A stretch of DNA of 64,000 bases, from contig JBAZKC010000001.1 in NCBI GenBank assembly GCA_041651035.1, positions 515,244-579,243 on the forward strand. Direction: 5' to 3'. Each line of letters opens with the position of its first letter. The first letter of the stretch is position 1. A program made the translations under genes and the position numbers. Below the pieces are notes generated by a model, which was not told where the DNA came from, made no database searches, and was given only the letters and a program-made list of their open reading frames with translations. The DNA is from Candidatus Omnitrophota bacterium. Lineage in GTDB: Bacteria; Omnitrophota; Gorgyraeia; Gygaellales; Profunditerraquicolaceae. This document shows positions 4,660 through 39,504 of this stretch, in pieces.

Positions 4660-4663
4660 TAAT

Positions 4664-7733: not shown

Positions 7734-7771
7734 TTTCTGGAAATCTTCCAGAATTGCTATATAATAAACCT

Positions 7772-8257: not shown

Positions 8258-8262
8258 GATTC

Positions 8263-8901: not shown

Positions 8902-8905
8902 TACT

Positions 8906-14612: not shown

Positions 14613-14617
14613 AGTAT

Positions 14618-16099: not shown

Positions 16100-16100
16100 A

Positions 16101-24200: not shown

Positions 24201-25802
24201 ATGAAAAAAGCCTTATCAATTGGTCTCTTACTTATATTTAATTTTATGAGCCTTCCTTTGGCAGGCTATGCTTTGGATGAGAGCGGAGGAGAAATCAAGT
24301 TAGTCGTCGGAGAAGTTACGATAATGCCGGTCAATAATCCTACGCGTATTGTCATAGGCAATCCTGATATAGCAGATGTTTCCGATGTTGCCAAGAATGA
24401 AATGACCATTGTACCCAAAGCCCCGGGCACGACTAATATGGTATTATGGGATAACTTTGGTGAACAGTCTTATGAGGTCAGGGTTATCGCTGAGAATATG
24501 GACGCGGTTAAGCGCCGCATTGATATATTAATAGGAAGGCTTAATCTACCGCAGGTCTATACCCAGATAGCGGAAGACGAAGGCAAGGTCCTTCTTTTAG
24601 GAAGAGTTAAGGCTCCGGCGGACAGAGAAAGGATCGCTACTGCCCTGGGTCCGTTAAAAGATAAAACAACAGACCTCATTGTAGTAAAAGAAGAAGAGGC
24701 AGTGGTAAATATTGACGTGCAGGTTTTAGAGTTAAGTAAAGATGCTACTAGCACTCTGGGATTTACCTGGCCGGGAGCCATAACATTAACTGATGTCTCC
24801 GCGGCCACGACTACAGCGACAACCGGGCTAGAGAAAGTTTTCCGTGTTTCCCAATTTACGCGTACAGCCTTTAATGTTACCTTAGATGCCTTGGTGCAGG
24901 AAGGCAAGGTCAATATTCTTTCCCGTCCGCGGCTTTCCTGTCAAAGCGGCAAAGAGGCGGAATTATTGGTGGGCGGAGAGAAGCCGATTTTTACCACGAC
25001 AGTCGCTGCTACTACCGGCGCATCGGGCACATCCATAGAATATAAGGAATACGGTATTAAGCTTAAGATAAAACCCACCGTAACCGACGATAAGAAAGTA
25101 AAGCTGGCATTAAACGTAGAAGTAAGCGAAGTAGGCACTGTGGATACTATCGGGACTACTTCTACCGGTGAAGTCACGGCTAAGGCCTATCCTTTGACTA
25201 AACGCAACGCTTCCACTGAGCTTCTCCTTAATGACGGGCAGACTATGGCCATAGGCGGGCTGATGAAGCAGAAGACCGAAGAAGCCGTCCGTAAGACTGC
25301 CTGGGCGGGAGATCTGCCTATAGTGGGGGCGCTCTTCAGGCAAAAGACTACCAAGGTGGGCGGAGGCATAGGCGAAAGAGGCAATACAGAATTATTTATC
25401 ACTCTTACCCCTACCGTATCCAGTGAAGAGAAGAAGGCGCCGGAAGTTAAAAAAGAGATCACGCCAAAAATAAGTTCTTCCGGAGCCAGCGATATTAGTG
25501 GAAATACTTTAGGCCCTAAGGCCTTATACGCCACAATTATACAGAAACGCATATTAGAGAATATGATTTATCCTTCTTTAGCCAAAGAAGCTGGTTTCCA
25601 GGGGGAATTAAAGTTGAGCCTGCTCTTGTCTTATCGGGGCGAACTTTTAGAGGCAAGGCTTAAAGAATCCTCGGGGTATAAGATATTGGATGACCAGGCT
25701 GTCAATGTGGCTAAGGGGATTGCTACGTATCCTCCTTTCCCTTCCTCTATAGAGCAAAAGGAACTCTGGATAGATGTTCCCATAGCCTATCAGTTGGATT
25801 AA
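24201..25802 (+). CDS. cpaC: Tad secretin CpaC/RcpA with a C-terminal TonB_C-like domain
   Basis: Secretin domain (…LSRPRLSCQSGKEAELLVGGEKP…GGLMKQKTEE…IPIVGALFR…). Last 100 aa (YPSLAKEAGFQGELKLSLLL…SSGYKILDDQAVNVAKGIATYPPFP) match the TonB C-terminal domain pattern. Confidence 0.7.
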   Translation: MKKALSIGLLLIFNFMSLPLAGYALDESGGEIKLVVGEVTIMPVNNPTRIVIGNPDIADVSDVAKNEMTIVPKAPGTTNMVLWDNFGEQSYEVRVIAENMDAVKRRIDILIGRLNLPQVYTQIAEDEGKVLLLGRVKAPADRERIATALGPLKDKTTDLIVVKEEEAVVNIDVQVLELSKDATSTLGFTWPGAITLTDVSAATTTATTGLEKVFRVSQFTRTAFNVTLDALVQEGKVNILSRPRLSCQSGKEAELLVGGEKPIFTTTVAATTGASGTSIEYKEYGIKLKIKPTVTDDKKVKLALNVEVSEVGTVDTIGTTSTGEVTAKAYPLTKRNASTELLLNDGQTMAIGGLMKQKTEEAVRKTAWAGDLPIVGALFRQKTTKVGGGIGERGNTELFITLTPTVSSEEKKAPEVKKEITPKISSSGASDISGNTLGPKALYATIIQKRILENMIYPSLAKEAGFQGELKLSLLLSYRGELLEARLKESSGYKILDDQAVNVAKGIATYPPFPSSIEQKELWIDVPIAYQLD

Positions 25803-28054: not shown

Positions 28055-28396
28055 ATGAAGATAATTAATAAAACCAAAAATACAATATTAGCGCAGAATG
28101 CCATTGTCGCGGATACGGTTTTTAAGAGAGCCAAAGGGCTTCTCGGCAGGAAGGATCTTAAGCAAGGCGAGGCTTTAATATTAAAGCCCTGTAATTCCAT
28201 CCATACCTTTTTTATGCAATTCCCTATCGATGTCTTATTTGTGAACAGGCATAATCAGATAATAAAGGCGATTCTTTCTTTAAAGCTTTGGAGCCTCACC
28301 CCGGTATATTTTAATGCTGCTTTTGTTATTGAGCTCCCCGCCGGTACGTTAGAATTAACTTCTACTCAAGAAAATGATATTCTCGCCTTAGAATAA
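28055..28396 (+). CDS. DUF192-family protein
   Basis: …RAKGLLGRKDL…ALILKPCNSIHTFFMQFPIDVLF…FVIELPAG fits the DUF192 (COG1430) pattern. Bracketed by REP clusters A and B. Confidence 0.5.
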   Translation: MKIINKTKNTILAQNAIVADTVFKRAKGLLGRKDLKQGEALILKPCNSIHTFFMQFPIDVLFVNRHNQIIKAILSLKLWSLTPVYFNAAFVIELPAGTLELTSTQENDILALE

Positions 28397-28476: not shown

Positions 28477-28959
28477 CTAAGTAGAATCAGGAAAATCTAT
28501 TAGTCCTGTTTTGTTACCAAAAACCCTGTCTTTATAACTGCTCCAGGGATAATCTGTAAGTATAGAGACTAAACCCGCCCTTAGCGGATTCATTTCAATA
28601 TAATAAACACAATCAATAAAATAATTGTCTTTTTGGATAACCATACTTTTGAATCTTCCTTGCCAGAGACGGCCTGGTTTTTTGTATTTGTTGTTGAACC
28701 AAACAGTGTACGTCTGGGTTAAGCCTTGCATAAATAATGCCAGATCATTAGGGTTTTTCGGCTCTAAAATGAGATGAATATGGTTTGGCATAAGGCAATA
28801 ACCAAATATTCTAAAGGCATATTTCTTCTTAAAGTGCTTTAATAGTTGCAGGTATTTCTCGAAATCCGCATTTTCTAGGAATATTCTTTGTTTTTGATTA
28901 CCCCTATTGACAACATGATAGCATGCATTATTTAAGATAATTCTTGCTCCTCTAGGCAT
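28477..28959 (-). CDS. REP-associated tyrosine transposase (RAYT; IS200/IS605 TnpA-like, Y1/HUH)
   Basis: HUH motif MPNHIHLIL. YHVVNRG near the N-terminus. C-terminal catalytic Tyr region (YIEMNPLRAGL). Flanked by REP clusters B and C in inverted arrangement. Confidence 0.7.
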   Translation of the reverse strand: MPRGARIILNNACYHVVNRGNQKQRIFLENADFEKYLQLLKHFKKKYAFRIFGYCLMPNHIHLILEPKNPNDLALFMQGLTQTYTVWFNNKYKKPGRLWQGRFKSMVIQKDNYFIDCVYYIEMNPLRAGLVSILTDYPWSSYKDRVFGNKTGLIDFPDST

Positions 28960-29172: not shown

Positions 29173-31128
29173 TTGGGAGTTGTCTATAAATTAAAAGATG
29201 AAATAAGAGATTTTATCGTAGAGAAAAAGAGATCAAACCAGGTCTTAAGTTGCCGGCGTATGTCTCTTTTAATTGAGGAGAAATTTAAGTCAAGGATATC
29301 TAAATCCAGCATTAACGCCATTATGAAAGAGGCCGGCTTGAGTATGCCGGTAGGAAGAAGGTTAAAAAAGAGAAGGCGCGGGCAGCAGGTGCCGCCTAAT
29401 TTGATAGAATTCAAGCCTATAGATGTGCCTTCTGAGATCAAAGAAGCGATCTCGCCTCTTAAGCCTATTACAGTTCAATCAAATATAACCCCTCCATCTG
29501 AACCAGTTATACCTCTGCCTGTTGTACCCTCGGCACCAGAACCTATTGTGGAGCAGCCTGTTGCGACTCCGGAGCCAGAACATATTGCGGAGCAACCAGT
29601 TACACCATCTCAGCCCGAGCCTGCTATAGAACAACCAGCAGTTATTCCTCCGCCTGAGCCGATTATAACCCCGCCAGCTGAGGTCCCGCCACCGCAACCT
29701 ATTGTGGAACAACCAGTTGTGGAGCAGCCTGTTATAGAACAACCGGTTCCTGCGGCACCTACGCCGGTTGCCGCGCCAACACCAATAGAAGAGCCAGTTG
29801 TCGCGCATATTGAGCCTCCGTCGGAGACGGAATGCACAGGGGCGATATTACTTAAGGCCACAGATTATTTAATAAAAGGTAGTTTCAATATCGCAGAGGC
29901 AGTCAAAGGCCGGTTAAGTAAACAAGAAGGAGATCTTTTGACTAAAACAGAAAGCCTGATTTATCTATCTTTATTTGAAAAGGATCTTCCCGGACTTTGG
30001 GCGTTTATAGACAGGCAGTTATCCGCAGAAGGCATAACAACTTATCTCAATGAACTGCAATCAGTTAGCGCATTAAACTCAAATATTCTTCGTGCTATTT
30101 CCAGCGCCTTACAAGAAGTCCGTTGTATCAAAGCTAATTGTTTGGGCGGGGATATTTTTTATTTAGATGGCCAGATGCACACTGTTTGGTCAACCCAGTA
30201 TATACCGTATGATTTCTCCGCAACTATTTACGACACAAAGAGTTGCATAAATAGATATTTCTTCGGAAGCGATCCTTTTGTTTTGTTTGTGGCGCCTGGC
30301 TATGATATCCCTACCAGGGAATTCTTTAATTTTATCTTAAGCCTAGCCTCCAAAGAGAAAACAATCGCCAACTTAACTCTTTATAATAATAAACTTGAGG
30401 AATTAGAGGTTGTCCATTTGGGCCAGCCAAAGAAGCGTTATTTTATTTGCGGGTTCTACCCCTGGCAATATGTGGAGTACCGCAAGGTCTATAAAATAGG
30501 GGAATTCAGGCCGTTCTACGCGGAGGCATTGCATAAAGATATTTATGGCGCGGACATAGAGATTGAGCTATCACAAACAGTTGGTATACAACATGTTATG
30601 TTAAGGGGGTGTGCTTTAAAAATGACTCCGGATGAGAAGACGCGCCTGGTAGTATTAAGCAATTTCGCCTATGGAGAGATCAAACCGGAAGATCTGGCAA
30701 ATACTTACCTGAACCACTGGCCAAACCTGGAAGAATGTTTTCAGGATTTCAGCCGAAAAATAGAGCTCTTTACTTACACCGCTGCCTCACGGCGTTTTTT
30801 CTCTCCGGATTTCCTTAATTTTGACAGCGGATCCAGCCAGGATATCAAGACGCTCTTTAATAATTACCTGAAAGCGCTTGATCTGTATATCAGATGGCAC
30901 TTCCTGCCGCTGGGTTATGAAGACAGCGATTTCTCGACGGTAAATGAGCGTTTTTACAGCCTAAAAGTCAGGCTTAAAAGAGAAAAAGGATATTGCCTGG
31001 CAATTTTTCAGCCTCCCTCAGGTTATGCTTATCTAAAGGAACTTGAATACGCCTGCCGCCGCGTAAACGAAAAAGAGATAATTGATCTCCACGGCAAAAA
31101 ATTACAGTTCAGCGTTGCTTCCCAGTAA
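29173..31128 (+). CDS. Hypothetical protein: N-terminal HTH-like region, proline-rich tandem-repeat linker (PEPIVEQPV-type), and a 430-aa C-terminal domain with faint DDE-transposase (IS4/IS1634-like Y..[RH]W..E…K) resemblance
   Basis: TTG start with AGGAGG 6 nt upstream. Residues 90-215 are a Pro/Glu/Gln-rich imperfect repeat. YLNHWPNLEECFQDFSRK resembles the Y-x2-R-W-x-I-E-x2-F-x3-K signature of IS4-superfamily transposases. Confidence 0.45.
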   Translation: MGVVYKLKDEIRDFIVEKKRSNQVLSCRRMSLLIEEKFKSRISKSSINAIMKEAGLSMPVGRRLKKRRRGQQVPPNLIEFKPIDVPSEIKEAISPLKPITVQSNITPPSEPVIPLPVVPSAPEPIVEQPVATPEPEHIAEQPVTPSQPEPAIEQPAVIPPPEPIITPPAEVPPPQPIVEQPVVEQPVIEQPVPAAPTPVAAPTPIEEPVVAHIEPPSETECTGAILLKATDYLIKGSFNIAEAVKGRLSKQEGDLLTKTESLIYLSLFEKDLPGLWAFIDRQLSAEGITTYLNELQSVSALNSNILRAISSALQEVRCIKANCLGGDIFYLDGQMHTVWSTQYIPYDFSATIYDTKSCINRYFFGSDPFVLFVAPGYDIPTREFFNFILSLASKEKTIANLTLYNNKLEELEVVHLGQPKKRYFICGFYPWQYVEYRKVYKIGEFRPFYAEALHKDIYGADIEIELSQTVGIQHVMLRGCALKMTPDEKTRLVVLSNFAYGEIKPEDLANTYLNHWPNLEECFQDFSRKIELFTYTAASRRFFSPDFLNFDSGSSQDIKTLFNNYLKALDLYIRWHFLPLGYEDSDFSTVNERFYSLKVRLKREKGYCLAIFQPPSGYAYLKELEYACRRVNEKEIIDLHGKKLQFSVASQ

Positions 31129-31168: not shown

Positions 31169-31197
31169 TTGACACTTTTTTTAACAGATGGTATATT
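31169..31197 (+). promoter_or_regulatory. sigma70-type promoter TTGACA-N17-TATATT driving the flp gene array
   Basis: TTGACA at 31169-74, TATATT at 31192-97. About 200-nt leader before the first flp ATG. Confidence 0.5.
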
Positions 31198-31220: not shown

Positions 31221-31384
31221 GCAGCGAAAAAGGGGAGGGCAATTCCACTAGGAGGAAGTGGATGCGCAAAGCCACGGGACCATGCTCGCTGAAAGAGCCT
31301 TTTTATATTTATTTATTTTTGGGTAGAAACGGTGATAATATCCGGGTTACCGAAAGCCGGGAAATTTTGGTAACCCGGTTTTGT
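31221..31384 (+). ncRNA. Candidate c-di-GMP-I (GEMM-like) riboswitch with intrinsic-terminator expression platform
   Basis: Ordered blocks AGGGCAAttCC, hairpin CCACt-AGGAGGAA-GTGG, GCGCAAAGCCACGGG, … CCGGGTTACCGAAAG resemble remembered GEMM-I conserved blocks (GGCAAACC / ACGCAAAGC…CGGG / GGGUUACCGA). The 3' block is the 5' arm of a perfect 10-bp stem (CCGGGTTACC at 31342-51 with GGTAACCCGG at 31369-78) followed by TTTTGT. Confidence 0.35.
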
Positions 31385-31401
31385 ATTATTAGGGGTTAAT
31401 A

Positions 31402-31590
31402 ATGGGTTTTAGAAAGTTCTTAAAAATTGTTTCCACGACGAAGGCGCAGTCTTCTTTAGAGTATTTTATTTTATTCGCTGTGATCGGCGGCTTGACTCTT
31501 ATAACCCTAAGCTCTTTTTTGCCTCAAGTAAAGCAATCCGGCGAAGACCTGTTCACTAACGCGGCGAACAGGATCATTAATCCTAAATGA
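31402..31590 (+). CDS. flp: Flp-family pilin (short form, 62 aa)
   Basis: …TKAQSSLEYFILFAVIGGLTLITL… Flp motif (x-x-x-E-Y plus a hydrophobic helix). Confidence 0.65.
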   Translation: MGFRKFLKIVSTTKAQSSLEYFILFAVIGGLTLITLSSFLPQVKQSGEDLFTNAANRIINPK

Positions 31591-31591
31591 A

Positions 31592-31741
31592 ATGAAAAAA
31601 GCGCAGAGTATTTTAGAATACGCGATGATCATCTCGGTAGTGGTAGCGGCTTTAATGGCGATGAATATTTATGTTCAGCGTTCAGTACAGTCGAATCTCA
31701 AGACGATAGAAGACAGGGTTAATGCTAAACCCGCGAATTAA
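31592..31741 (+). CDS. flp: Flp-family pilin (49 aa; below the ORF-track size cutoff)
   Basis: Manual translation: MKKAQSILEYAMIISVVVAALMAMNIYVQRSVQSNLKTIEDRVNAKPAN. Confidence 0.55.
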   Translation: MKKAQSILEYAMIISVVVAALMAMNIYVQRSVQSNLKTIEDRVNAKPAN

Positions 31742-31755
31742 AGGAGGATGGTAAA

Positions 31756-31920
31756 ATGAGGAGTAATAATGGTCAAAGTGTATTGGAATATGTCATTATT
31801 CTAACCGCTGTTATCGCTGTAATTATCCTCGCGGCGCAGAATATTATCAGGCCCGCGGTAAACCAGATAATGACCAACGCGGCAAGTTCTATGAATAGAG
31901 CGGCAAACCAATTGCCTTAA
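31756..31920 (+). CDS. flp: Flp-family pilin (54 aa; below the ORF-track size cutoff)
   Basis: Manual translation: MRSNNGQSVLEYVIILTAVIAVIILAAQNIIRPAVNQIMTNAASSMNRAANQLP. AAGGAGG RBS upstream. Confidence 0.6.
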   Translation: MRSNNGQSVLEYVIILTAVIAVIILAAQNIIRPAVNQIMTNAASSMNRAANQLP

Positions 31921-31937
31921 CTTATAAGGAGGGAAAG

Positions 31938-32261
31938 ATGCTGCATATCCTAAGGAACAAGAAGGCCCAGACTACCGCAGAATACGCCATACTTATAGGT
32001 TTAGTAGTAGCGGCTTTAATCGCTATGCAGACTTATGTAAAAAGAGGCCTGCAGGGCAGGATGAAAGACGCTACCGATACCTTTGCCACAGAGACTACTA
32101 ACCTCGGAGCTACGACTCAATATGAGCCGTATTATTTAAATCAGGCCAGCACCGGCACGAGCAGCTCTCAGCAAAGCGAAGGCATAACCGAAGGCGGCGG
32201 AGTGAGTAGGACTCAAAATGCCACATCCACCAGGACGGGCACGCAGTCATACGGTTGGTAA
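31938..32261 (+). CDS. flp: Flp-family pilin, long form with Ser/Thr-rich C-terminal tail (107 aa)
   Basis: KKAQTTAEYAILIGLVVAALIAMQTYVKRGLQG… followed by a T/S/G/Q-rich 60-aa tail. AGGAGGG RBS upstream. Confidence 0.65.
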   Translation: MLHILRNKKAQTTAEYAILIGLVVAALIAMQTYVKRGLQGRMKDATDTFATETTNLGATTQYEPYYLNQASTGTSSSQQSEGITEGGGVSRTQNATSTRTGTQSYGW

Positions 32262-32291
32262 AAAGAGCTTTTATTTAAGCAGGAGGAATAA

Positions 32292-32630
32292 ATGAAATCA
32301 AGGGGTTTTAAGAAAGGGCAGGGCACATTAGAATACGCGGTTATCGTGGTGGTGGTTATAGGCGCGCTTATCGCGATGCAGTGGTATATTAAAGGAGGCT
32401 ATCAGGGAAAGCTCAGGCAGGCTTCCGACGATATGGGTGAACAGTTCTCGCCGACGCGCACGACCACTAATTATGTTACAAGCACATCATCTTCTACGAA
32501 TGAGCAGGTTTCAGGGGGTTCGTTAGGCAGCAACGTCATGCCGGTAAGTTCCACTAATTTTACCCAAACCCAAAGCAGGGCGGGGAGCGAAAGTGTGGAG
32601 AGCTTAAGCACGACAAGCGACCAGAGATAG
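32292..32630 (+). CDS. flp: Flp-family pilin, long form with Ser/Thr-rich tail (112 aa)
   Basis: KKGQGTLEYAVIVVVVIGALIAMQWYIKGGYQG… followed by an S/T-rich tail. Confidence 0.65.
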   Translation: MKSRGFKKGQGTLEYAVIVVVVIGALIAMQWYIKGGYQGKLRQASDDMGEQFSPTRTTTNYVTSTSSSTNEQVSGGSLGSNVMPVSSTNFTQTQSRAGSESVESLSTTSDQR

Positions 32631-32657
32631 GCCGTTTTAATGTAGGATGTTTTAAAT

Positions 32658-32981
32658 ATGTTTAAACAATTTACTAAGGCGCAGAGCCTTGTAGAATATT
32701 CTATTATCCTGGCGGTGGTACTGGCTGCTTTAATGGGGATGCAGTTATATATGAAACGCGGCCTGCAGGCAGGAGTAAAGGTTGCCGCCGATCAATTAGG
32801 TTCCCAGGAGAGCGCGGATGTATTAATAAACTTTAAAAGGCAGGCAAATACAGTCAGTAATACTACGGCTCTAAAATCCGGCGTAGTTAGGACACAGGTT
32901 TCTGAAGGAGGGAGTCAAACCAAGGCTACAGATATTACTGATACTGTAGTTAGCTCTTCAGTATCTACGATGCAGGAATAA
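32658..32981 (+). CDS. flp: Flp-family pilin, long form with Ser/Thr-rich tail (107 aa)
   Basis: TKAQSLVEYSIILAVVLAALMGMQLYMKRGLQAG… followed by an S/T-rich tail. Confidence 0.65.
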   Translation: MFKQFTKAQSLVEYSIILAVVLAALMGMQLYMKRGLQAGVKVAADQLGSQESADVLINFKRQANTVSNTTALKSGVVRTQVSEGGSQTKATDITDTVVSSSVSTMQE

Positions 32982-32984
32982 AGG

Positions 32985-33326
32985 ATGGAGGAGATGAAAA
33001 ATAAGCTGATAAGGGCGCAATTCAGTTTGGAATACGCGGTAGTTATCGTCTGTATAATTATAGCTCTTATAGCTATGCAGGCTTATATGAAACGCGGCAT
33101 GCAAGGAAAGATGCGCCAGACCGCCGACAGTATCGGCGAACAGTATGACCCGGCAAGCACCACTTCGGACAGCACAATGGCCTTTAATTCAGTTACTAAT
33201 ACTTTAACGACTACTATAGATAACAGCGGCTCAACTACTACCAATACCGTTTCTAATTTTGAAGAGACACAGACCCGCACAGGTACTGAAACGGTCGGGC
33301 CGCTGGAGAACGCTACTTTAGAATAA
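32985..33326 (+). CDS. flp: Flp-family pilin, long form with Ser/Thr-rich tail (113 aa)
   Basis: IRAQFSLEYAVVIVCIIIALIAMQAYMKRGMQG… followed by a T/S/N-rich tail. Confidence 0.65.
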   Translation: MEEMKNKLIRAQFSLEYAVVIVCIIIALIAMQAYMKRGMQGKMRQTADSIGEQYDPASTTSDSTMAFNSVTNTLTTTIDNSGSTTTNTVSNFEETQTRTGTETVGPLENATLE

Positions 33327-33337
33327 AAGGATGAACT

Positions 33338-34300
33338 ATGAACGCGCGCAAATATACCAGGCTATCAGGGCAGGCAATATTGGAATTGGCTATCTTTGGC
33401 GCTATTATCATCATGCTTTTAGGTATACTACTTAATTACGGTTTAAGGTATAGCTTGGAACAGAAGGTGATGATGAACACTTTTAGAGAGGCATTACAAG
33501 ACACTGCTAACTCTGTTACCGGTGGGCAAGGCAGTATCACCGTGATTCAGGATAAACATGTCCCCAATCCGGCTGACCCTTTTGGCGTGGGCACGGTAAC
33601 TCCTTTTGCTTCTAGCTCCAGCGTAACCCGTAGTTACAAATTACATGAGACCCCGGATACCTACGCGGAATTGCCTCGCGCCACCTTTCAAATACAGGAT
33701 AAAAAGTTCTCTTATAAGACCGCAGGGTTCAGGGATGTAGATAGTGCGTCAGGATTGAGTAAATATGAGGAGGTATACGGCGGCAGTAATGTCTGGGCAG
33801 TTGGAAGCGGGTTAAGGATACTTGATTCCTGCGAGGGTGAGATAATGAGCTATGATAACTGCAAGAGGCAATGCCGGATGATCACAGATACGGATTTCTG
33901 CGTCAAGGAATGCAACAGGGGCAAACTGGTGGGTAGCAGCACGGATTGCACTGCAGTCTGCGCCCAGGAAATAGAAACACCTTGGTATTGTAACTCGCTC
34001 GACAGTGTCTTTAATTTTGCCATTGCGACGAATAAGCCTAAGGCAATGGGGGTGCAGTCTGAGTATAGCAAACAGACTGTAGTAAGCAATATCCTAAGAA
34101 AACAGGAATCCGCAGGTAAAATAGCTACTACTGATACTATAGACTGGTCTGATACCACCAAGAGAATGATACTTTATAACGAGCGAGTAGTAAGTCCAAG
34201 CGGGGCGATGCAGCCTGGTATTAATATTCAGTCAACTCCGGTTGAGACTACAGTCGGTGAAACAACCACGCAGGAATGTCAGGACGGAGTTTGCCAATAA
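33338..34300 (+). CDS. TadE/TadG-like pseudopilin with cysteine-rich C-terminal domain
   Basis: N-terminal …LSGQAILELAIFGAIIIMLLGILLNYGL (TadE-like motif). C-terminal region has at least 10 Cys (CEGEIMSYDNCKRQCRMITDTDFCVKECNRG…C…C…C). Confidence 0.55.
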   Translation: MNARKYTRLSGQAILELAIFGAIIIMLLGILLNYGLRYSLEQKVMMNTFREALQDTANSVTGGQGSITVIQDKHVPNPADPFGVGTVTPFASSSSVTRSYKLHETPDTYAELPRATFQIQDKKFSYKTAGFRDVDSASGLSKYEEVYGGSNVWAVGSGLRILDSCEGEIMSYDNCKRQCRMITDTDFCVKECNRGKLVGSSTDCTAVCAQEIETPWYCNSLDSVFNFAIATNKPKAMGVQSEYSKQTVVSNILRKQESAGKIATTDTIDWSDTTKRMILYNERVVSPSGAMQPGINIQSTPVETTVGETTTQECQDGVCQ

Positions 34301-34311
34301 AGGAGAATGTG

Positions 34312-34746
34312 ATGGAAAGAAAGAAAATAAGCCTTATAGCGTTACTAGCGGCTGTATTATTTATATCGGGTTGCACGGGTGCAGAGACCGATGCCCAGTT
34401 TACCAAACGCGTTTTTAACGGTTTGGTCAAGGGGAACCAGAAAATACAGGATTCCATAGATTGGGAGAAATTCAAGGCCTTTGGAATAGACACAGGTCAG
34501 GCTTATTCAAATATAGTGTCTGAAAAAGAAAGGGCGGACTACCGGAAGATATTTTTATATAATTGCGCCTTTACTTTTAGAGCCGCCAAAGGTAAGCCGG
34601 CCGTCATTTCTAACTGGCGGGTAAAGAGCAGGGAAGGCGATAATACAATTGTAGCGGCGGATACCCCTGTAGGGAAGGCTTTATTGTTTACTTTAACTTT
34701 TAGCAAAGGTAAACGCAAGCTTGCCGCCATAAATTGGCAACAGTAA
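34312..34746 (+). CDS. Lipoprotein of unknown function
   Basis: MERKKISLIALLAAVLFISGC lipobox (start trimmed to the internal ATG at 34312). Confidence 0.45.
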   Translation: MERKKISLIALLAAVLFISGCTGAETDAQFTKRVFNGLVKGNQKIQDSIDWEKFKAFGIDTGQAYSNIVSEKERADYRKIFLYNCAFTFRAAKGKPAVISNWRVKSREGDNTIVAADTPVGKALLFTLTFSKGKRKLAAINWQQ

Positions 34747-34766
34747 GGATTACGAAGGTAGTAAAT

Positions 34767-35009
34767 ATGATAAGAGAAGGCAGCCAAGCTAAAAAAGCAC
34801 AAGTAACTTTAGAGTTGGCTACCGCCCTTATCTGTATTTTCCTGTTACTTCTGGCGAGTGTAAAGCTCGGTACTTGGCTAATAGGCAGGATGGTAGTCAG
34901 GCAGGAAGATTATGAAACCAGCAGGGTAGCAGCAGGCAGCACAAATATAGGAGAAGCAGTTGATGAATCGGACACTACAAGATATAAAAACCTGCACTTC
35001 TTTAAATAA
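34767..35009 (+). CDS. Small TadE-like protein
   Basis: …KKAQVTLELATALICIFLLLLASVKLG… TadE-like N-terminal segment. Track ORF 34734 uses TTG; ATG 34767 preferred. The 3' end overlaps the tadG start by about 47 nt in another frame. Confidence 0.4.
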   Translation: MIREGSQAKKAQVTLELATALICIFLLLLASVKLGTWLIGRMVVRQEDYETSRVAAGSTNIGEAVDESDTTRYKNLHFFK

Positions 35010-37251
35010 TCTCAAGAAAGATAGGCTATCGGCGCAAGTAGCCACTCTGCTTATCTTGGTTATCGCGGGTATACTTATTTTTATCCTGGCAGTGGCAAAT
35101 ATCGGGCATATTTCTAATTATGCCACAAACCTTTCCAATGCTGCGGATGCCGCCAGTCTTTCTTTAGCCTCCCAGTTAGGCACAAAATCATTTCAGTTTT
35201 CCGCTTCCTTAATGAAATCTTGTCACAAGGCGGATAAATGTTGTCAGAAAACCGGACTGCTAAGTGTTCTTTTAGCTATAGTTATAGCGATTATAGTGAT
35301 AATAATTGTTATTGTTTCATGGGGTTCGGCAGCGCCGTTAGGAGCAACTTTTTTGGGGGCTGCTTTTACGATGTTACAAACAACGGCCGGAGCAGCATTT
35401 ATGACCGCCGCCGCCGCTGTTGGCGGAGCTGTTGGCGGAGCTGTTGGCGGAGCAATTGCGGGAACAGGAGCTTTGCAAGGGGCAATCCAGGGTTTTATGA
35501 TTGGAGCGGCCCTTGGTTCTATAGTATCACTTGGAGCGGGTCTAGCAGGCGGAGGGGCTGTAGCTGGGTCGGGCGGAACATCTGTTGCTTGGGATTTTTC
35601 TATTCCTAGTATTGGTCTGGAGCTTGCGCCAATCTCGATTACTATACCCGCCGGAGCAGCTATACCCTCTTTTGTAACATCAGGAGTAGCAGCAGGGGTA
35701 GCAACAATAGGGGCAAGCAGCCTTGCTATTGCCAGTGTGTCAGGTGCTATTACTGGTGCCGTTGCTGGCGTAACTCTTTCCGCTGCTTCCAGTATCTACA
35801 GCGCCTATGCCAAGGACGCTATGCAGGATGCCGCAATGGCTGACGCGGTCAGGAAATTAAATGGCCTGCCCGAAGGTACCCGCTACCGGGAAAGCATATT
35901 TTTACAGGCATTATCTCAAACTGTAGATGATCCAAATAAGGCGGTGGATACCTATGATTCCGACGGTGACGGCGATACCGCAGAAGAAGTTCCATATTTT
36001 CAAATCTGGTGGGACAATCGTATTGCTTTTTTAAAAGGAGAATATGCCGTTAGTTTAGAGGAGGCAAAAGAGGTAGTTAACGCGTTCATACAACTGTATC
36101 CGTCTTCCAGCGCAAAATATTCTTTCCAAGGCGCGGTAAGGACGTTTGAAACAGCCAGCAGCACTTTTAAGGCTGCCCTATCCAGACTAGAACTGGAATC
36201 TTCCGACGGCAGCGTGGTTGAGCTTTTACGCGCCTTAGAAAATGCCGGCTATGATGTTTCTTTCTGGGAATCGGGTCCAACCTACTCCGCGTATAAGGCT
36301 TGGATGGAATCTACTGATGAAGACTCTGAGGCCCCCACAGGTTATGATGAATTGGATTATGTTATCGGGGAACTGGATGATTTTAACGATGAAATTGATA
36401 CGTTAAGGTCAATGATATCATCAAATTTTGACGATTTGATATACAACTGGGAAAGTTGGCTTACTGCTTTTTATGACCCCGAATCTTATAACGTCAGTTG
36501 CACGGATGGCGTATGCTCCGGAGGCGATTATTATACTATCTTTCAACGGATGATAAACGGATATTCCGCTGATTCTCCCCCGCAGGTAGGCTTAAACGGC
36601 TGGGTTAGTGGAATAGAAAACATCAGGGAGCGGCTTCCTGTCTGCACTTATGGTACTAATAGATATGATAGAGACGGCAACTTTTTGGGGTGTCTTACTT
36701 ATACCAATTCTACTGATTGTATCTTAAGCGATCCACCCTGTAGGTGGCATCCTGCCGATCCCACATTTGGAACTATAGATAAGGATTTTGATGATGAATT
36801 CCAGGCTGTCCAGGATGCCATAAATAATTTTGCCGCGGCAACCGAGGCATTTCGTCAGCACTCGGTGGATTTTTATAATGCCCTTGTTGCCGCCTTAGAT
36901 CCCGATATGCAAAGATTGGCTGGCTACGGAGGCTCTAACCCTATAACTTACAAATGGGCTGATTCCCGCGGTGACCATAATGTTGCTGTAACGCTTGGCA
37001 GTTTTAATATCCCTCGCTTGATACGCAAGAAATACGGCAACTGGTTGAAAGGTAAAAAGTGCATAATCCTGGTAGACCATACCCAAAATGTAACCGTAAC
37101 CATAAAAAGGCAAGACCCTGCCAATAAAGAAATGGGCATATTGGGCTCTTGGAATCCTTCTTTCAACGGGATAATCCAGCGTAAATCCACGGCCCAGTAC
37201 CGGGGGTTAGCAGGAAATAATAACGGTTACGTAAAATTAGTAGGAAAATAA
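34963..37251 (+). CDS. tadG: TadG-like Flp pilus assembly protein (763 aa) with Gly/Ala-rich low-complexity core
   Basis: N-terminal …DRLSAQVATLLILVIAGILIFILAVANIG… (Tad-like N-domain). Long G/A/S-rich region, including (VGGA)x3 from a 12-nt tandem repeat at 35418-53. Confidence 0.6.
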   Translation: MNRTLQDIKTCTSLNNLKKDRLSAQVATLLILVIAGILIFILAVANIGHISNYATNLSNAADAASLSLASQLGTKSFQFSASLMKSCHKADKCCQKTGLLSVLLAIVIAIIVIIIVIVSWGSAAPLGATFLGAAFTMLQTTAGAAFMTAAAAVGGAVGGAVGGAIAGTGALQGAIQGFMIGAALGSIVSLGAGLAGGGAVAGSGGTSVAWDFSIPSIGLELAPISITIPAGAAIPSFVTSGVAAGVATIGASSLAIASVSGAITGAVAGVTLSAASSIYSAYAKDAMQDAAMADAVRKLNGLPEGTRYRESIFLQALSQTVDDPNKAVDTYDSDGDGDTAEEVPYFQIWWDNRIAFLKGEYAVSLEEAKEVVNAFIQLYPSSSAKYSFQGAVRTFETASSTFKAALSRLELESSDGSVVELLRALENAGYDVSFWESGPTYSAYKAWMESTDEDSEAPTGYDELDYVIGELDDFNDEIDTLRSMISSNFDDLIYNWESWLTAFYDPESYNVSCTDGVCSGGDYYTIFQRMINGYSADSPPQVGLNGWVSGIENIRERLPVCTYGTNRYDRDGNFLGCLTYTNSTDCILSDPPCRWHPADPTFGTIDKDFDDEFQAVQDAINNFAAATEAFRQHSVDFYNALVAALDPDMQRLAGYGGSNPITYKWADSRGDHNVAVTLGSFNIPRLIRKKYGNWLKGKKCIILVDHTQNVTVTIKRQDPANKEMGILGSWNPSFNGIIQRKSTAQYRGLAGNNNGYVKLVGK

Positions 37252-37410
37252 ATGGGAAAAAGAGGGGCATTCTCTATAGAATACGCGGTGTTCATCGTTG
37301 TCCTAATTGCTTCTTTGGTAGCCATGTCCGTTTATATTACGCGGGCAGTCTGCGGTAAATTCAGGGAATCCGCCGATACATTTGGCCACGGCAGGCAATA
37401 TGCGCCTTAA
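37252..37410 (+). CDS. flp: Flp-family pilin (52 aa; below the ORF-track size cutoff)
   Basis: Manual translation: MGKRGAFSIEYAVFIVVLIASLVAMSVYITRAVCGKFRESADTFGHGRQYAP. Starts immediately after the tadG stop. Confidence 0.55.
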   Translation: MGKRGAFSIEYAVFIVVLIASLVAMSVYITRAVCGKFRESADTFGHGRQYAP

Positions 37411-37449: not shown

Positions 37450-38307
37450 ATGTTGGTAATATTGCAGTTGCTCATCCTTATTTTATTATTTGCTTCCGTA
37501 TATCTTATCGCCCAGCCGATAATCCCTTTTGTAACCGATAAACTCCAGCGCGCGCAGGCAAAAAAAGTATCGCAGGCAGAGAAGCAGCTTGACGAGATGT
37601 TCCTGCTGGTTAAGCGCGAGAAATTATTCTTGTATTATACCTTAAGCCCGGTTGTGCTGGCCGGTTTAGCCATGCTATTGTTCCATCAGGTAGTTATTGC
37701 CGTAATCGCGGGAGCCGTTGGTTTTCTCCTGCCGGCATTCGTGATCAAACAGATGGAAATACAGCGTAAAGAAAAATTTCTCAATCAGCTCGTTGATGGG
37801 CTAATGATCGTTTCGTCTTCGCTAAAAGGAGGGCTTTCTTTTATCCAGGCAATAGAAGTCCTGGTGGAAGAGATGCCGCCTCCGATATCCCAGGAGTTTG
37901 GGTTGATCTTAAGAGAGAACAAAATAGGGTTAACTTTAGAGGATAGCCTTAAGCGTTTAAATGACAGGTTGAAGATGAATGAATTAGGCCTGGTTATCAA
38001 TTCTATCCTTGTAGCAAGAGAGACAGGAGGGGATTTAACCAAGGTTTTTAGTAAGCTTTGTTCTACTTTCCGGGATAACCATAAACTAAAGGAGAATATA
38101 CGCACCTTGACCTTGCAGGGCAGATTACAGGGCATAATTATGTCTGTGCTGCCTATTGTATTTGTCTGGTGGGTCCTGACCTTTAACCGCCAGCATTTCG
38201 ATATCATGTTAAACACAGAGCAAGGAAGGATGCTTTTATTGGTAGCTGTGGTGTTACAGATAGTAGGTGTTTTGCTTATCCGCAAGTTCAGTATGGTCAG
38301 GATATAG
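37450..38307 (+). CDS. tadB: Flp pilus assembly protein TadB (T2SS-F domain inner-membrane platform)
   Basis: T2SSF-like core (…QEFGLILRENKIGLTLEDSLKRLNDRL…GGDLTKVFSKL…) plus TM helices. Confidence 0.7.
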   Translation: MLVILQLLILILLFASVYLIAQPIIPFVTDKLQRAQAKKVSQAEKQLDEMFLLVKREKLFLYYTLSPVVLAGLAMLLFHQVVIAVIAGAVGFLLPAFVIKQMEIQRKEKFLNQLVDGLMIVSSSLKGGLSFIQAIEVLVEEMPPPISQEFGLILRENKIGLTLEDSLKRLNDRLKMNELGLVINSILVARETGGDLTKVFSKLCSTFRDNHKLKENIRTLTLQGRLQGIIMSVLPIVFVWWVLTFNRQHFDIMLNTEQGRMLLLVAVVLQIVGVLLIRKFSMVRI

Positions 38308-38337
38308 ATCATAATATAAATACGAAAGAGAGGGGAT

Positions 38338-39192
38338 ATGCTTCTGGTAATTTATATATTCTTAGCTGCGGCAGCCGCGCTTGTCATAATTGGTATATCA
38401 GGCTCTATCCAGCCTGGAGCGAGGCGCGCCCCGCTTCCCCATCCGCAGGCGAACAGGCCGCGAGTAAGCTTCTCTTTCAGCCAGAAATTATTAGAGAAAC
38501 TCAAATTGGATGTAAAAATAAAGAATAAATTAGCCGCTGCCCATGTGATGAACATTACAGCCGGCCAGTTCTTTGATATCAGGCTTGCCCTGCTGGTTAT
38601 CGCGGGCAGTATGAGTTTTCTCCTTCTAAAGAAGATCGACCCTCCGGTAATGCTTATATTCCTTGCCTTGGCATATCTTATTCCCGATCTGTGGCTGAAA
38701 AGGAAGATAAGCCAGCGTAAATACGAGATCGCCCGGGTCCTGCCCGAGACAGTAGATCTGCTGGGTTTATGCGTAGAGGCAGGCCTGGATTTTACTACGG
38801 CAGTAAAATGGGTCATTGAAAAGAAGGTCTCTGCTAACCCTATGGTTGAAGAATTAGCCCTGGTATTGGATGAGATAAAATGGGGCAAGCCGCGCAGCCA
38901 GGCACTAAAGGATATGGCTAAGAGATTGAATGTCCCGGAAGTAAGTTCCTTTGTCCAGGCCCTGGTGCAGGCAGAGCGCATGGGTACGCCTGTAGGAGAG
39001 GCATTTGGCATCATATCTGAAGATACCCGTTTACAGCGTTTTCGCAGGGGAGAGCGTTATGCCCTGCAAGCTCCCATAAAGATCCTTCTGCCTTTGATTT
39101 TCTGTATATTGCCGGTAATCGGTATTATCATTGGCGGCCCTATACTCTTACAGTTTACTCAAGGCGGTTTATTCACCGGATTTGCTAAATAG
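38338..39192 (+). CDS. tadC: Flp pilus assembly protein TadC (T2SS-F domain)
   Basis: T2SSF-like core (…ALKDMAKRLNVPEVSSFVQALVQAERMGTPVGEAF…) plus TM helices. Confidence 0.7.
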   Translation: MLLVIYIFLAAAAALVIIGISGSIQPGARRAPLPHPQANRPRVSFSFSQKLLEKLKLDVKIKNKLAAAHVMNITAGQFFDIRLALLVIAGSMSFLLLKKIDPPVMLIFLALAYLIPDLWLKRKISQRKYEIARVLPETVDLLGLCVEAGLDFTTAVKWVIEKKVSANPMVEELALVLDEIKWGKPRSQALKDMAKRLNVPEVSSFVQALVQAERMGTPVGEAFGIISEDTRLQRFRRGERYALQAPIKILLPLIFCILPVIGIIIGGPILLQFTQGGLFTGFAK

Positions 39193-39474: not shown

Positions 39475-39504
39475 TTGACATGGACGCTATCTATATGTTA
39501 TACT
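39475..39504 (+). promoter_or_regulatory. sigma70-type promoter TTGACA-N17/18-(T)TATACT for the giant gene
   Basis: TTGACA at 39475-80. Spacer contains GGACGCTAT, as at 29088-104. TATACT at 39499-504. About 190-nt leader before ATG 39697. Confidence 0.5.

Follow-up and report, generated by a model that had tools for sequence, protein, structure and literature searches.

What does a Tad machine gain from eight pilin genes, four of which encode proteins with long polar tails? In the textbook view, Tad pilins are bare helices of 40-60 residues, and the long class described here departs from that picture. The genes lie in a 64-kb stretch (hereafter the window) of a metagenome-assembled genome from an uncultured Candidatus Omnitrophota bacterium. 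Our reading, to which we give a probability of about 0.6, is that they encode co-transcribed Tad (type IVc) prepilins of two classes, with the long class projecting from the surface, the last gene (P8) supplying an adapter, and the array gated by c-di-GMP.

All eight pilin ORFs are present on the + strand, seven within 31402-33326 and one at 37252-37410, and the NCBI record calls every one of them (WC723_02845-02875 and 02900), each as a "hypothetical protein". The genes are intact, have their own start sites, and belong to one operon. Three short Flp-like prepilins come first (↓, processing site): P1 (31402-31590; 62 aa, leader MGFRKFLKIVSTTKA↓QSSLEY, 47 aa mature), P2 (31592-31741; 49 aa, MKKA↓QSILEY, 45 aa mature), which has a helix like that of the long class, and P3 (31756-31920; 54 aa, MRSNNG↓QSVLEY, 48 aa mature). 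The long class follows with P4 (31938-32261; 107 aa, 97 mature), P5 (32292-32630; 112 aa, 103 mature), with a GEQFSP junction and an S/T-rich tail, P6 (32658-32981; 107 aa, 99 mature), whose tail is the most divergent, and P7, which carries a GEQYDP..TTSD junction and a C-terminal ETQTRTGTETVG motif. P7 ends at 33326 and could start at 32985 (113 aa) or at 32994 (110 aa); the latter is likelier, being favored by a GGAGG Shine-Dalgarno sequence and used in the NCBI record. P8 (37252-37410; 52 aa, MGKRG↓AFSIEY) is short, yet its helix is of the long-class type and its stop codon falls right after the junction motif (GRQYAP-stop), making it the sole junction-terminating pilin among 309 short pilins.

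The sequence-only reading had taken these genes for eight Flp-family pilin paralogs sharing an E-Y pair and a hydrophobic helix. That holds: they encode class III-leader prepilins of the Flp/Tad type within a Tad locus. The count of three short pilins below 60 aa (P2, P3, and P8) is correct too. The leaders follow the pattern (K/R)(K/R)(G/A)↓Q-x-x-x-E-Y ahead of the hydrophobic helix, and the eight-way alignment has just two invariant columns, the Glu and Tyr of the x-x-x-x-E-Y motif. The proposed kinship of the long ORFs with Flp stands by alignment of this leader, but not by HMM score: none of the window pilins reached threshold against curated models, with at most 20.8 bits for Class_IIIsignal (cut-off 23.7) and at most 22 bits for Pfam Flp_Fap (cut-off 32.2). 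Across the family, Class_IIIsignal is the commonest Pfam match, though weak (26 of 100 members). Among 737 related pilins, the -1 residue is G or A (Ala in about 40%); in both classes, 96-97% have Q at +1 and 89-99% have Y at +6. The two ancient classes share one processing site, (K/R)(K/R)(G/A)↓Q-S-T-L-E-Y, and because of this common site the same prepilin peptidase presumably cuts both; no prepilin peptidase was found within the window.

The two length classes recur in related loci. Mature lengths in 120 Omnitrophota loci are bimodal, with one mode at 40-59 aa (292 pilins) and another at 90-119 aa (366), and short and long classes occur together in 76 of 78 complete arrays. Three short plus four long genes is the modal (and median) layout, and Ca. 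Velamenicoccus archaeovorus LiM has it too, within the Tad locus that was reported to be expressed in co-culture (PMC10066038). P1 falls in community C, the usual first gene 3´ of the riboswitch described below, and P3 in community A (133 members, 98 loci). P4-type genes are mostly single-copy (87 members, 79 loci) with a fixed place after the A-type short pilin, and P4 itself pairs one-to-one with an ortholog from Ca. V. archaeovorus, the tail-only score being 108 compared with at most 49 for any within-genome paralog. Of the long positions, only the first two show clear positional orthology (65%, with 25% expected by chance); at the third and fourth it is weak. When the four long paralogs were used as a profile, 4,493 cluster representatives matched at E<=1e-3, of which 1,567 reached E<=1e-10, and the best 150 of the 4,493 matches are 95-167 aa long and match through the tail. 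On sequence grounds, the long pilins are a large, undescribed class with a conserved extra C-terminal module.

Counting from mature residue 46, the four long pilins have tails of 52-58 aa, with 0.31-0.47 S+T and 0.50-0.67 S/T/G/N/Q, compared with 0.11 and 0.25 in 17 other window genes. Four paralogs with Ser/Thr-rich C-terminal tails, atypical of Tad pilins, had been claimed, and the composition agrees. Nor are the tails frameshift artefacts, since the same length and the same tail motifs recur in hundreds of homologs. The suggestion of a "fuzzy coat" survives in part: the extensions are genuinely polar and S/T-rich, but they are not mere low complexity, as conserved anchor motifs frame variable arms. 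Three such anchors flank the two hypervariable polar arms: Q-[YF]-x-P at the junction, Gly at the turn, and R-x-G-x-(E/Q) at the C-terminus. The Q[YFW].P junction is present in 59% of long pilins, compared with 2% of short pilins and 0.6% of shuffled sequences, and [RKQ].G.[EQ] near the C-terminus in 33% vs 3%. The arms have a column entropy of 2.5-2.6 bits, compared with 0.85 bits for the helix. In the P4 orthogroup (703 clusters, 48-78% identity, uniform length), QYEPYY is invariant and G86/G87, R99, G101, and Q103 are conserved. With respect to glycosylation, N-x-S/T sequons are not enriched in the tails (1.15 vs 0.96 expected), and the operon encodes neither a glycosyltransferase nor an oligosaccharyltransferase. 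A sugar-biosynthesis cluster does occur in the window (2100-11969), 20 kb from the operon with unrelated genes between.

Structure prediction suggests a fold for this module. AlphaFold2 (AF2) modeled P7 as a helix plus beta-hairpin (E67-78/E84-96, pLDDT 43-58), and an independent run gave the same arrangement for P4 (E68-84/E88-104, pLDDT about 71-73) with the turn on the conserved GGG; both are monomer models of low to moderate confidence. P4 would run from the helix through the invariant QYEPYY (61-66) to the predicted hairpin (68-84/88-104), with its GGG turn, and on to R99-T-G101-x-Q103. A Foldseek search for neighbors of the hairpin returned nothing significant (best E = 1.4), and a period-2 amphipathic pattern was not found in the arms. 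Given these two results and the low to moderate monomer confidence, the arms could be disordered, but most likely they form a long beta-hairpin or a closed loop projecting from the filament surface. We picture the long class (P4-P7) as the same ~45-residue helix followed by a Q-[YF]-x-P cap and a module of ~50 residues, in which two fully polar arms, hypervariable and rich in Ser/Thr, would lie between conserved ends and on either side of a conserved Gly turn. Ordinary helix-only Flp pilins would make up the short class (P1-P3), with 45-48 residues when mature.

Upstream of the array is a leader with the features of a regulated transcript. The region's best promoter candidate by consensus match is sigma-70-like, at 31169-31197 on the + strand (TTGACA-17-TATATT with an extended -10 TG; 11 of 12 matches). 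It is followed by a candidate c-di-GMP-I (GEMM-I, RF01051) aptamer at 31228-31354 (+). The element covers the full model (1-87, E about 7e-4) and has the RF01051 aptamer core (GGCAA..., CGCAAAGCCACGG, CCGGGUUACCGAA), but it departs from the standard in having 62 nt inserted into its second hairpin and, at 28.4 bits, is below the Rfam gathering score of 35. Elements at the same position in 19 related loci score 36.7-59 bits, above that gathering score, and the window aptamer aligns with them, with compensatory changes in the stems. In terms of homology and position, a c-di-GMP-I riboswitch precedes the array. A terminator-like hairpin followed by TTTTGTATT lies at 31342-31386 (+), with 14-nt arms at 31342-31355 and 31365-31378; its 5´ arm is the 3´ strand of the aptamer, forming a putative expression platform. 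This overlap recurs in 37 of 54 related elements, compared with 3% of shuffled controls, and in 50 of 55 loci the riboswitch is followed first by a short pilin gene. The riboswitch would gate transcription of the whole array, and since one strand serves both aptamer and terminator, c-di-GMP binding should allow read-through (an ON switch). Clostridioides difficile pilA1 is controlled by a class II c-di-GMP riboswitch, which is also an ON switch. The window element resembles c-di-GMP riboswitch-controlled pilin genes in its place in the 5´ leader of a pilus operon and in a terminator that shares the aptamer 3´ strand.

The surrounding genes, all on the + strand, place the array in a Tad locus. 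Domain matches identify a Rotamase_2 PPIase (22319-23287), RcpC/CpaB (23288-24190), a secretin with a C-terminal TonB_C domain (24201-25802), and a fused TadZ/CpaE-TadA/CpaF ATPase (T2SSE plus ParA-like domain; 25809-27980). Two further upstream genes are syntenic with those ahead of the pilin array in Ca. V. archaeovorus (E = 2e-20); they encode a DUF192 protein (28055-28396) and a protein of 651 aa (29173-31128) whose HTH-like N-terminus is joined by a Pro-rich linker. Between P7 and P8 are a 320-aa class-III-leader protein (33338-34300; G↓QAILELA), a putative TadE/F-like minor pilin with no Pfam or NCBIfam match; a predicted 156-aa lipoprotein (34276-34746; lipobox ...FISGC) with no Pfam match; a 91-aa TadE/F-like class-III-leader protein (34734-35009; A↓QVTLELA) with a weak TadE match (E = 0.18); and a 763-aa TadG-like candidate (34960-37251) with a Gly/Ala-rich region. 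The last had been called tadG, a label that its position, size, and N-terminal hydrophobic segment suggest but that no HMM match backs. TadB-like (37450-38307; E = 5e-16) and TadC-like (38338-39192; E = 2e-15) platform proteins with T2SSF domains follow P8. RcpC, the secretin, TadZ-TadA, TadB, and TadC would polymerize both classes via their N-terminal helices, and P8, as a long-class helix that lacks the hairpin and sits beside the TadE/F/G-like genes, is probably an adapter between tip complex and shaft.

Known pilins resemble parts of this system. Bacterial Tad/Flp major pilins (Caulobacter crescentus PilA, Aggregatibacter Flp1; PF04964) share the G/XXXXEY-type site with E5-Y6, the ~45-residue continuous hydrophobic-to-polar helix without Pro22, and the company of RcpC, secretin, TadZ/TadA, and TadB/TadC; P1-P3 and P8 fit their description as helix-only pilins of 40-60 residues. 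Unlike them, Omnitrophota pilins nearly always have Gln at +1, often Ala at -1, and Flp_Fap scores below the gathering cut-off. Archaeal pilins such as those of Sulfolobus islandicus are Ser/Thr-rich and heavily O-glycosylated. These, and the Geobacter split pilin PilA-N/PilA-C (PMC10710030), cover a short helical core with an added glycosylated or beta-rich outer layer, whereas the Omnitrophota module is fused to the helix, spans just ~50 residues, and shows no detectable homology with either. The EppA-processed Epd pilins of Methanococcus maripaludis (PF04021 Class_IIIsignal/DUF361) have the same short Gly-ended leader, +1 Gln, and +5 Glu, and pair a short major pilin (62 mature residues) with several longer minor ones (EpdA-C, ~2x, 130-156 aa; PMC3875500). 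They lack the +6 Tyr "Flp motif" that the Omnitrophota pilins keep, and the latter are bacterial and encoded in a secretin-containing Tad locus; no tail similarity to archaeal pilin domains was detected. The Kil system of Myxococcus xanthus, like ours a Tad system of a (putative) predator with many pilin genes, has a major pilin (KilP), small Flp-like adapters (KilK/KilO), and larger TadE/F/G-like tip pilins (KilL/M/N) encoded together, with variable exposed domains proposed for prey contact (PMC12075869). P8 compares with KilO, a small Flp-like gene beside the TadE/F/G-like genes. KilP is reported to be fully alpha-helical, the available part of the Kil description has no counterpart of a helix plus Q-Y-x-P plus hairpin, and Kil tips are multiple TadEFG paralog sets rather than tandem Flp-like paralogs.

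Where the long subunits sit is a point to be weighed. They could be low-abundance minor pilins that act in tip, priming, or adapter roles with the TadE/F/G-like proteins while a P1- or P3-type pilin builds the shaft, an option we put just short of even odds. Their genes stand together, without interruption, just upstream of those for the TadE/F/G-like proteins, the P4 type is usually single-copy at a fixed position, a short pilin leads the operon, the M. maripaludis minor pilins are about twice the major pilin in length, and Kil minor-pilin tips vary and adapt to prey. However, a locus can have 1 to 8 long pilins, the strongest Shine-Dalgarno sequences of the array belong to P4, P5, and P7, and a separate TadE/F/G-like set is already there for the tip. 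Depending on the locus, between 2 and 7 long pilins stand in a run, and this disfavors a complex of fixed stoichiometry. The same strong ribosome-binding sites speak for long pilins as major or co-major shaft subunits, with a helix core uniformly clothed in possibly O-glycosylated Ser/Thr-rich hairpins, much like heavily glycosylated archaeal pili and in keeping with the decorated surface of the sequence-only reading, as do the tail composition, the hypervariable and fully polar arms expected of an exposed surface, and the size of a family universally found alongside short pilins. This we consider rather unlikely, given at least four distinct long paralogs per genome with no single dominant gene, the lack of glycosylation enzymes in the operon with the sugar cluster 20 kb off, the sequon counts, and the Epd and Kil analogies, which indicate short major pilins. 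We lean slightly toward specialized or minor subunits rather than shaft co-subunits. In either place, long subunits would provide the fiber with an outer layer, or a distal segment, that is polar, differs among lineages, and makes contact with host or prey surfaces. If they are minor pilins, recognition of prey or host at the end of the pilus would fall to the variable hairpin arms.

Two further readings concern the array as a whole. Tandem paralogs with variable tails had suggested major-pilin cassettes that are recombined or phase-switched to alter an antigenic surface. That now seems very improbable: the paralogs are at just 25-36% protein identity, their DNA identity is 63-78% even where the helix is encoded, long identical or near-identical stretches are absent, the pilin genes have no tandem or homopolymer repeats, and the sole inverted repeat of the array region is the leader hairpin (31342-31378). 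All genes are intact in one operon, and both the orthogroups and the order of the genes are kept throughout the phylum. The paralogs are old and without DNA signatures of recombination or phase variation, so antigenic or functional variation through such switching is not supported. An ORF of more than 8,105 aa begins about 500 nt downstream of tadC. Its closeness, together with a 2026 preprint in which 13 of 14 giant genes have pilus or secretion flanks, raises the prospect that the machine is mainly a secretion or presentation system (a pseudopilus) for this giant protein, with the class-III proteins as pseudopilins. We regard this as unlikely, since the parts are of the Tad type (RcpC, the TadZ-like ParA domain, two T2SSF proteins), co-location alone establishes no substrate relationship, and the giant ORF has a promoter-like site of its own at 39475-39504. 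A pseudopilus would bear on the output of the machine and is compatible with a two-class description of the pilins.

Eight pilin genes are present on the + strand, as the sequence-only reading described, seven of them in tandem (P1-P7, 31402-33326, with spacers of 1-30 nt) and one further downstream (P8, 37252-37410). In each product the leader is short and basic, with Gly or Ala as its last residue, and precedes Q-x-x-x-E-Y and a hydrophobic helix; P8 differs at the processing site, with A-F-S-I-E-Y in place of Q-x-x-x-E-Y. When the eight are aligned, the Glu and Tyr of x-x-x-x-E-Y are the sole invariant columns. P1, P2, P3 and P8 have mature lengths of 45-48 residues, and P4-P7 have mature lengths of 97-103 residues, made up of a helix of ~45 residues and a tail of 52-58 residues. 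These four tails are indeed rich in Ser and Thr (31-47% Ser+Thr and 50-67% S/T/G/N/Q, compared with 11% and 25% in 17 other genes of the window). All eight pilins are called as genes in the NCBI record, each under the name 'hypothetical protein' (P7 is 100% identical to WC723_02875), and public annotations across the family are 'hypothetical protein', 'Flp pilus assembly pilin Flp' and 'gas vesicle protein'.

The long-tailed pilins, which the same reading proposed to look for in other genomes, form a large conserved family. A profile built from P4-P7 and run against 1.84 billion representative proteins gave 4,493 matches at E<=1e-3 and 1,567 at E<=1e-10, and the best 150 of the 4,493 are 95-167 aa long and aligned through the tail. 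Related loci were gathered from species-representative genomes with a back-translated DNA pattern (A-M-Q-x-Y-x-K-R-G-x-Q-G), which favours the long-tailed family and is no gauge of its occurrence outside Omnitrophota. This motif scan yielded at least 120 loci, almost all of them under the label Omnitrophota, among them the complete genome of Ca. Velamenicoccus archaeovorus (LiM), whose Tad locus is cited by Seymour et al. as expressed in Methanosaeta co-culture (PMC10066038). The mature lengths of the 769 Flp-like ORFs extracted from these loci are bimodal, with 292 at 40-59 aa, 366 at 90-119 aa and few between. Both length classes occur in 76 of the 78 loci with a complete array, the median being seven pilin genes (three short and four long), and LiM has the same layout of three short and four long genes as the window. 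The window thus carries the modal Omnitrophota arrangement, not one peculiar to this genome, and in this unusual phylum such a pilin array is nothing out of the ordinary.

Some loci carry the labels 'Planctomycetales', 'Dehalococcoidia' or 'Methanosarcinales', which probably reflect labelling or binning issues. Locus L009 (a binchicken assembly, 'uncultured Planctomycetales') shares 82% identity over 7 kb with L010 of Omnitrophota, and L117 (JBGLNK010000001.1, 'Dehalococcoidia', a 2.3-Mb scaffold) shares 99.7% identity over 3.8 kb with L105, from an Omnitrophota MAG of the same study. These two labels look unreliable, and we do not claim that the family occurs beyond Omnitrophota. A third contig, L020 (JAIWAR010000014.1, from a 'Methanosarcinales archaeon' MAG), holds a typical Omnitrophota array of four short and four long pilins at 5311-7900, preceded by a 59-bit c-di-GMP-I riboswitch, and is probably of Omnitrophota origin and co-binned with an archaeon. 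The co-binning is intriguing, given that Ca. V. archaeovorus attacks Methanosaeta.

The processing site is common to both length classes. All eight window pilins have a Flp-type leader with a predicted cleavage site before XXXXEY, residue -1 being Gly in P3, P5 and P8 and Ala in P1, P2, P4, P6 and P7; +1 is Gln in seven of the eight, with Ala in P8. Among 737 pilin ORFs from related loci, -1 is Gly in 56-60% and Ala in 37-43%, +1 is Gln in 96-97% (299 of 309 short and 410 of 428 long pilins) and +6 is Tyr in 89-99%; +5 Glu was demanded by the search signature used to collect these ORFs and is therefore not independent evidence. The leaders agree with the class III type as defined in PMC3875500 (short and closed by Gly, with Gln at +1 and Glu at +5). 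According to that study, the +1 Gln/+5 Glu rule belongs to archaeal EppA substrates, while bacterial Flp pilins are marked by the E5-Y6 'Flp motif', which is absent from M. maripaludis pilins; the Omnitrophota site merges the archaeal and bacterial patterns. Because the site is shared, a single prepilin peptidase presumably handles short and long pilins alike. No Peptidase_A24 prepilin peptidase was matched among the scanned window ORFs or in the 8-kb LiM locus.

In Pfam searches, no window pilin reached the gathering threshold of Flp_Fap (PF04964, 32.2 bits; scores of 12-22 bits, with P4 best at 22.0 bits and the others at <=14 bits or without a match) or of Class_IIIsignal/DUF361 (PF04021, 23.7 bits; window pilins 13.3-20.8 bits). 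P1-P8 were all without a match to TadE (PF07811), and an NCBIfam search of the eight gave nothing useful. Among 100 family members, matches at E<=0.01 were found to Flp_Fap in 14, to Class_IIIsignal in 26 (best E = 5e-6) and to TadE in three. As the curated thresholds are not reached, membership of the Flp/class-III superfamily rests on the processing motif, the helix and the Tad context. By length, P1, P2, P3 and P8 agree with the description of Flp pilins as all-helical, tail-free proteins of ~40-60 residues, whereas P4-P7 depart from it through a conserved, non-helical C-terminal module.

The Tad context is that expected of Flp pilins. On the + strand, a Rotamase_2 PPIase (22319-23287), RcpC/CpaB (23288-24190, E = 4e-23), a secretin with a C-terminal TonB_C domain (24201-25802, E = 2e-37) and a TadZ-like/TadA fused ATPase (25809-27980; T2SSE, E = 2e-62, joined to a ParA/AAA_31 domain) are followed by a DUF192 protein (28055-28396) and a 651-aa protein with an HTH-like N-terminus (29173-31128), with an IS200-type transposase on the opposite (-) strand at 28477-28959. 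P1-P7 come next, then a 320-aa protein with a class III leader (33338-34300), a lipoprotein (34276-34746), a 91-aa TadE-like protein (34734-35009; weak TadE match, E = 0.18), a 763-aa TadG-like candidate (34960-37251), P8, and TadB-like and TadC-like T2SSF proteins (37450-39192; E = 5e-16 and 2e-15), all on the + strand. The region's best promoter-like site (31169-31197, +, 11/12 matches) lies upstream of P1, and no + strand terminator-like sites were found inside the pilin array.

Several components of this locus are of interest in their own right. The fusion of a Tad secretin to TonB_C is unusual, as is the joining of a TadZ/CpaE-like ParA domain and a TadA/CpaF ATPase in a single 723-aa protein. 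The DUF192 protein and the large HTH-like protein, which has a Pro-rich linker in its window copy, separate tadA from the pilin array both here and in LiM (E = 2e-20; L077, the LiM locus, 2128-2544 and 2606-4177) and are conserved, uncharacterised locus components, possibly regulatory. The gap between the two is 62 nt in LiM and 777 nt in the window, where it is filled by the IS200/Y1-type transposase; this looks like an insertion within the Tad locus that broke no gene.

The tails were initially likened to a 'fuzzy coat', and this part of the interpretation has to be modified: conserved motifs at the junction and near the C-terminus rule against generic low-complexity sequence. A Q-[YFW]-x-P junction just past the helix is found in 59% of long pilins, compared with 0.6% of shuffles and 2% of short pilins, and [RKQ]-x-G-x-[EQ] near the C-terminus is found in 33% of long pilins, compared with 3% of shuffles. 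Conservation can be followed most closely in the P4 orthogroup (703 clusters at 90% identity), whose members among the matches listed are about 93-127 aa long, mostly 106-113, with no Pfam flp/pilin domain on record. Despite overall identities of only 48-78%, QYEPYY (P4 residues 61-66) is identical in 91 of 91 aligned sequences and could serve as a helix cap, an inter-subunit contact, or a modification or binding site. Residues G86-G87, R99, G101 and Q103 are conserved at 79-93%. Column variability in the two arms of the tail is 2.5-2.6 bits, compared with 0.85 bits in the helix; both arms are wholly polar, and neither a period-2 hydrophobic face nor an alternating hydrophobic pattern was found in them.

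AlphaFold2 monomer models of P7 and P4, which are different query proteins with largely separate alignments, both show a helix predicted with confidence and, after it, a two-stranded hairpin (P7 strands E67-78 and E84-96, pLDDT 43-58; P4 strands E68-84 and E88-104, pLDDT about 71-73, with the turn on a conserved GGG). Our reading is that a conserved frame of junction, turn and C-terminal clasp would present two variable, solvent-exposed arms, as either a hairpin or a closed flexible loop. An hmmsearch of PDB sequences with the family profile gave 0 matches at E<=10, and Foldseek found no significant structural relative of the P4 model in the PDB (best E = 1.4). The top Foldseek matches (E >=1.4) are beta-hairpin stems of pore-forming toxins; we set pore formation aside and take the likeness as that of any long hairpin. 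The arms, besides, have no alternating hydrophobic pattern.

The suggestion that the paralogs support antigenic or phase variation is not borne out: no signatures of recombination or phase variation were detected in the pilin genes. Paralog DNA identity is 63-78% even in the helix-coding part, no long identical tracts are shared between paralogs, and the genes contain no tandem or homopolymer repeats. P4 scores 230 over its full length and 108 over its tail against its LiM counterpart, and at most 145 and 49, respectively, against paralogs of its own genome, identifying an unambiguous ortholog. The LiM orthologs of P4 and P5 are BU251_00105 and BU251_00110. Unsupervised Louvain clustering (too coarse at resolution 1, over-split at resolution 2) recovered a recurring gene order of short C ... 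short A - long B - long D/M/I - long F - long J/G/O. Where a locus has four long genes and no more (23 loci), the first and second of them find their best match in other loci at the same position in 65% of cases, compared with 25% by chance, and the third and fourth in only 21-35%; strict four-way positional orthology is thus supported at long positions 1 and 2 only. Runs of long genes vary from 2 to 7 per locus. Together, orthology and gene order indicate an ancient origin of the classes and of at least two orthogroups, with the distal array turning over on evolutionary timescales. The pilin array is not a within-genome switching system.

Expression of the array may be set by its leader. The ~200 nt between the promoter-like site and P1 match RF01051 over the full model, and the element, including an overlapping terminator, occupies 31228-31386 (+). 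A 62-nt insertion in the second hairpin keeps its score (28.4 bits, E about 7e-4) below the gathering threshold of 35 bits. Five of 18 related loci scanned blind have RF01051 matches above the gathering score (36.7-59 bits), all just upstream of the first pilin gene. With 14 of 18 further matches to a lineage model also passing the Rfam curated threshold, 19 related loci in total lie above it, among them L020 (5311-5467), L059 (6510-6632, - strand), L010 (1991-2129), L007 (5454-5589, - strand) and L086 (1198-1341). The window element aligns with these above-threshold relatives, with compensatory changes in the first stem, and has the core sequences, the two-hairpin architecture and the 5'-leader position with an expression platform that define c-di-GMP-I riboswitches. 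The lineage model, which had the window element in its training set and scores it at 120 bits, finds one element in 56 of 121 sources, and 55 of these lie on the strand of the pilin array and ahead of all its genes (median gap 87 nt). The window match is weak alone, but the related loci make strong comparative evidence for a riboswitch.

A hairpin and U-run follow the aptamer in 37 of 54 elements, compared with 3% of shuffled controls, with the aptamer's conserved 3' strand serving as the hairpin's 5' arm; in the window, the terminator hairpin (31342-31378) is followed by TTTTGTATT. Given this overlap of aptamer and terminator, c-di-GMP binding is predicted to prevent termination and so turn the pilin operon ON. 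The prediction fits the presence of nearby c-di-GMP signalling genes, among them a GGDEF response regulator (13671-14612). PilZ and GGDEF genes have been described around giant genes (West-Roberts et al.), and no published link of Omnitrophota pilin operons to a riboswitch was found in the literature searched. The GGDEF regulator is part of a - strand signalling module (13671-17306) that includes a FIST-domain protein and a histidine kinase and is situated ~15 kb upstream of the putatively riboswitch-controlled operon.

What the long pilins do in the filament can be approached by comparison with other systems. By geometry, a module appended at the C-terminus would lie on the filament's outer side. 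The minor pilins EpdA-C of M. maripaludis are about double the length of its major pilin, which has 62 mature residues (PMC3875500). The Myxococcus Kil predatory Tad system (PMC12075869) has a shaft of helical Flp and prey-specific tips of TadE/F/G-like proteins that can be interchanged, and next to the tip genes are those for small Flp-like 'adapter' pilins. By analogy, candidate tips here are the 320-, 91- and 763-aa proteins. P8, which has a long-class helix ending right after the junction motif GRQYAP and is alone among 309 short pilins in ending at the junction, is a candidate adapter pilin. The long pilins themselves could be specialised or minor subunits, as the archaeal example might suggest, and the order of the long genes, their usual single-copy status and their position behind the short genes point this way. 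They could also be shaft subunits that co-polymerise with the short class, for which the strong ribosome-binding sites of P4, P5 and P7 and the variable copy number of long genes speak.

We suggest, tentatively and with a probability of roughly 0.3, that Omnitrophota build a structurally new type IVc filament, in which Flp-like helices carry a fused beta-hairpin with a conserved frame. The hypervariable Ser/Thr-rich arms would form an outer layer or a distal segment involved in host or prey recognition, perhaps bearing glycans, and the whole set would be switched on by c-di-GMP through the riboswitch. O-glycosylation of the arms, proposed earlier, is plausible from their composition; N-glycosylation sequons are not enriched in the tails, and the pilin operon contains no glycosyltransferase genes. 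If this model of the filament is correct, the long class would either retain or have independently regained the 'helix plus beta-domain' pilin plan, whose loss from Tad pilins is thought to have followed their transfer from archaea.

The Omnitrophota Tad locus and its association with giant genes have been published (Seymour et al., PMC10066038; West-Roberts et al.), and nothing in the literature searched described the two length classes, the conserved long-class module, the QYEPYY orthogroup or the riboswitch. The sequence-only reading was thus confirmed in its observation and partly supported in its interpretation. Tad pilins are currently described as bare helices of 40-60 residues, and the Caulobacter Tad pilus structure, the sole one discussed in PMC10710030, is helix-only. 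With thousands of Tad-locus pilins of ~100 residues that have a conserved C-terminal module, this generalisation fails for a whole phylum, and how a hairpin of ~50 residues fits onto the Tad helix core becomes a structural target. Omnitrophota are ultra-small putative predators or parasites, uncultivated except for Ca. V. archaeovorus; as their Tad loci lie beside giant genes with an implied role in predation, first contact with host or prey is likely to be made by the pilin repertoire. The riboswitch offers a concrete, testable regulatory input to the Tad machinery and a tie to the GGDEF and PilZ genes near giant genes, and a family model would correct annotation in hundreds of genomes.

The surroundings of the locus contain further features. 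A sugar-modification cluster 20 kb upstream of the pilins (2100-11969, +) encodes an RmlD-like reductase, a PMI-like protein, two aminotransferases (one DegT/DnrJ/EryC1), a GT2, a B12-radical SAM enzyme and methyltransferases including a C-methyltransferase. It could be a glycan source for surface proteins, and no link to the pilins was seen. A tRNA gene lies at 17458-17532 (+). Downstream, an open frame of more than 8,105 codons (39685-64000, +) starts ~500 nt past tadC, with its own promoter-like site (39475-39504), and leaves the window at its end. It has a Peptidase_C39-like domain (residues 190-273, counted from 39685) and, in its last 3,105 aa, GNAT, HATPase_c_2 and methyltransferase-like domains, with 4,000 aa between these domain regions giving no Pfam match. 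Its position beside the Tad locus agrees with the published link of Omnitrophota giant genes to a secretion/pilus locus.
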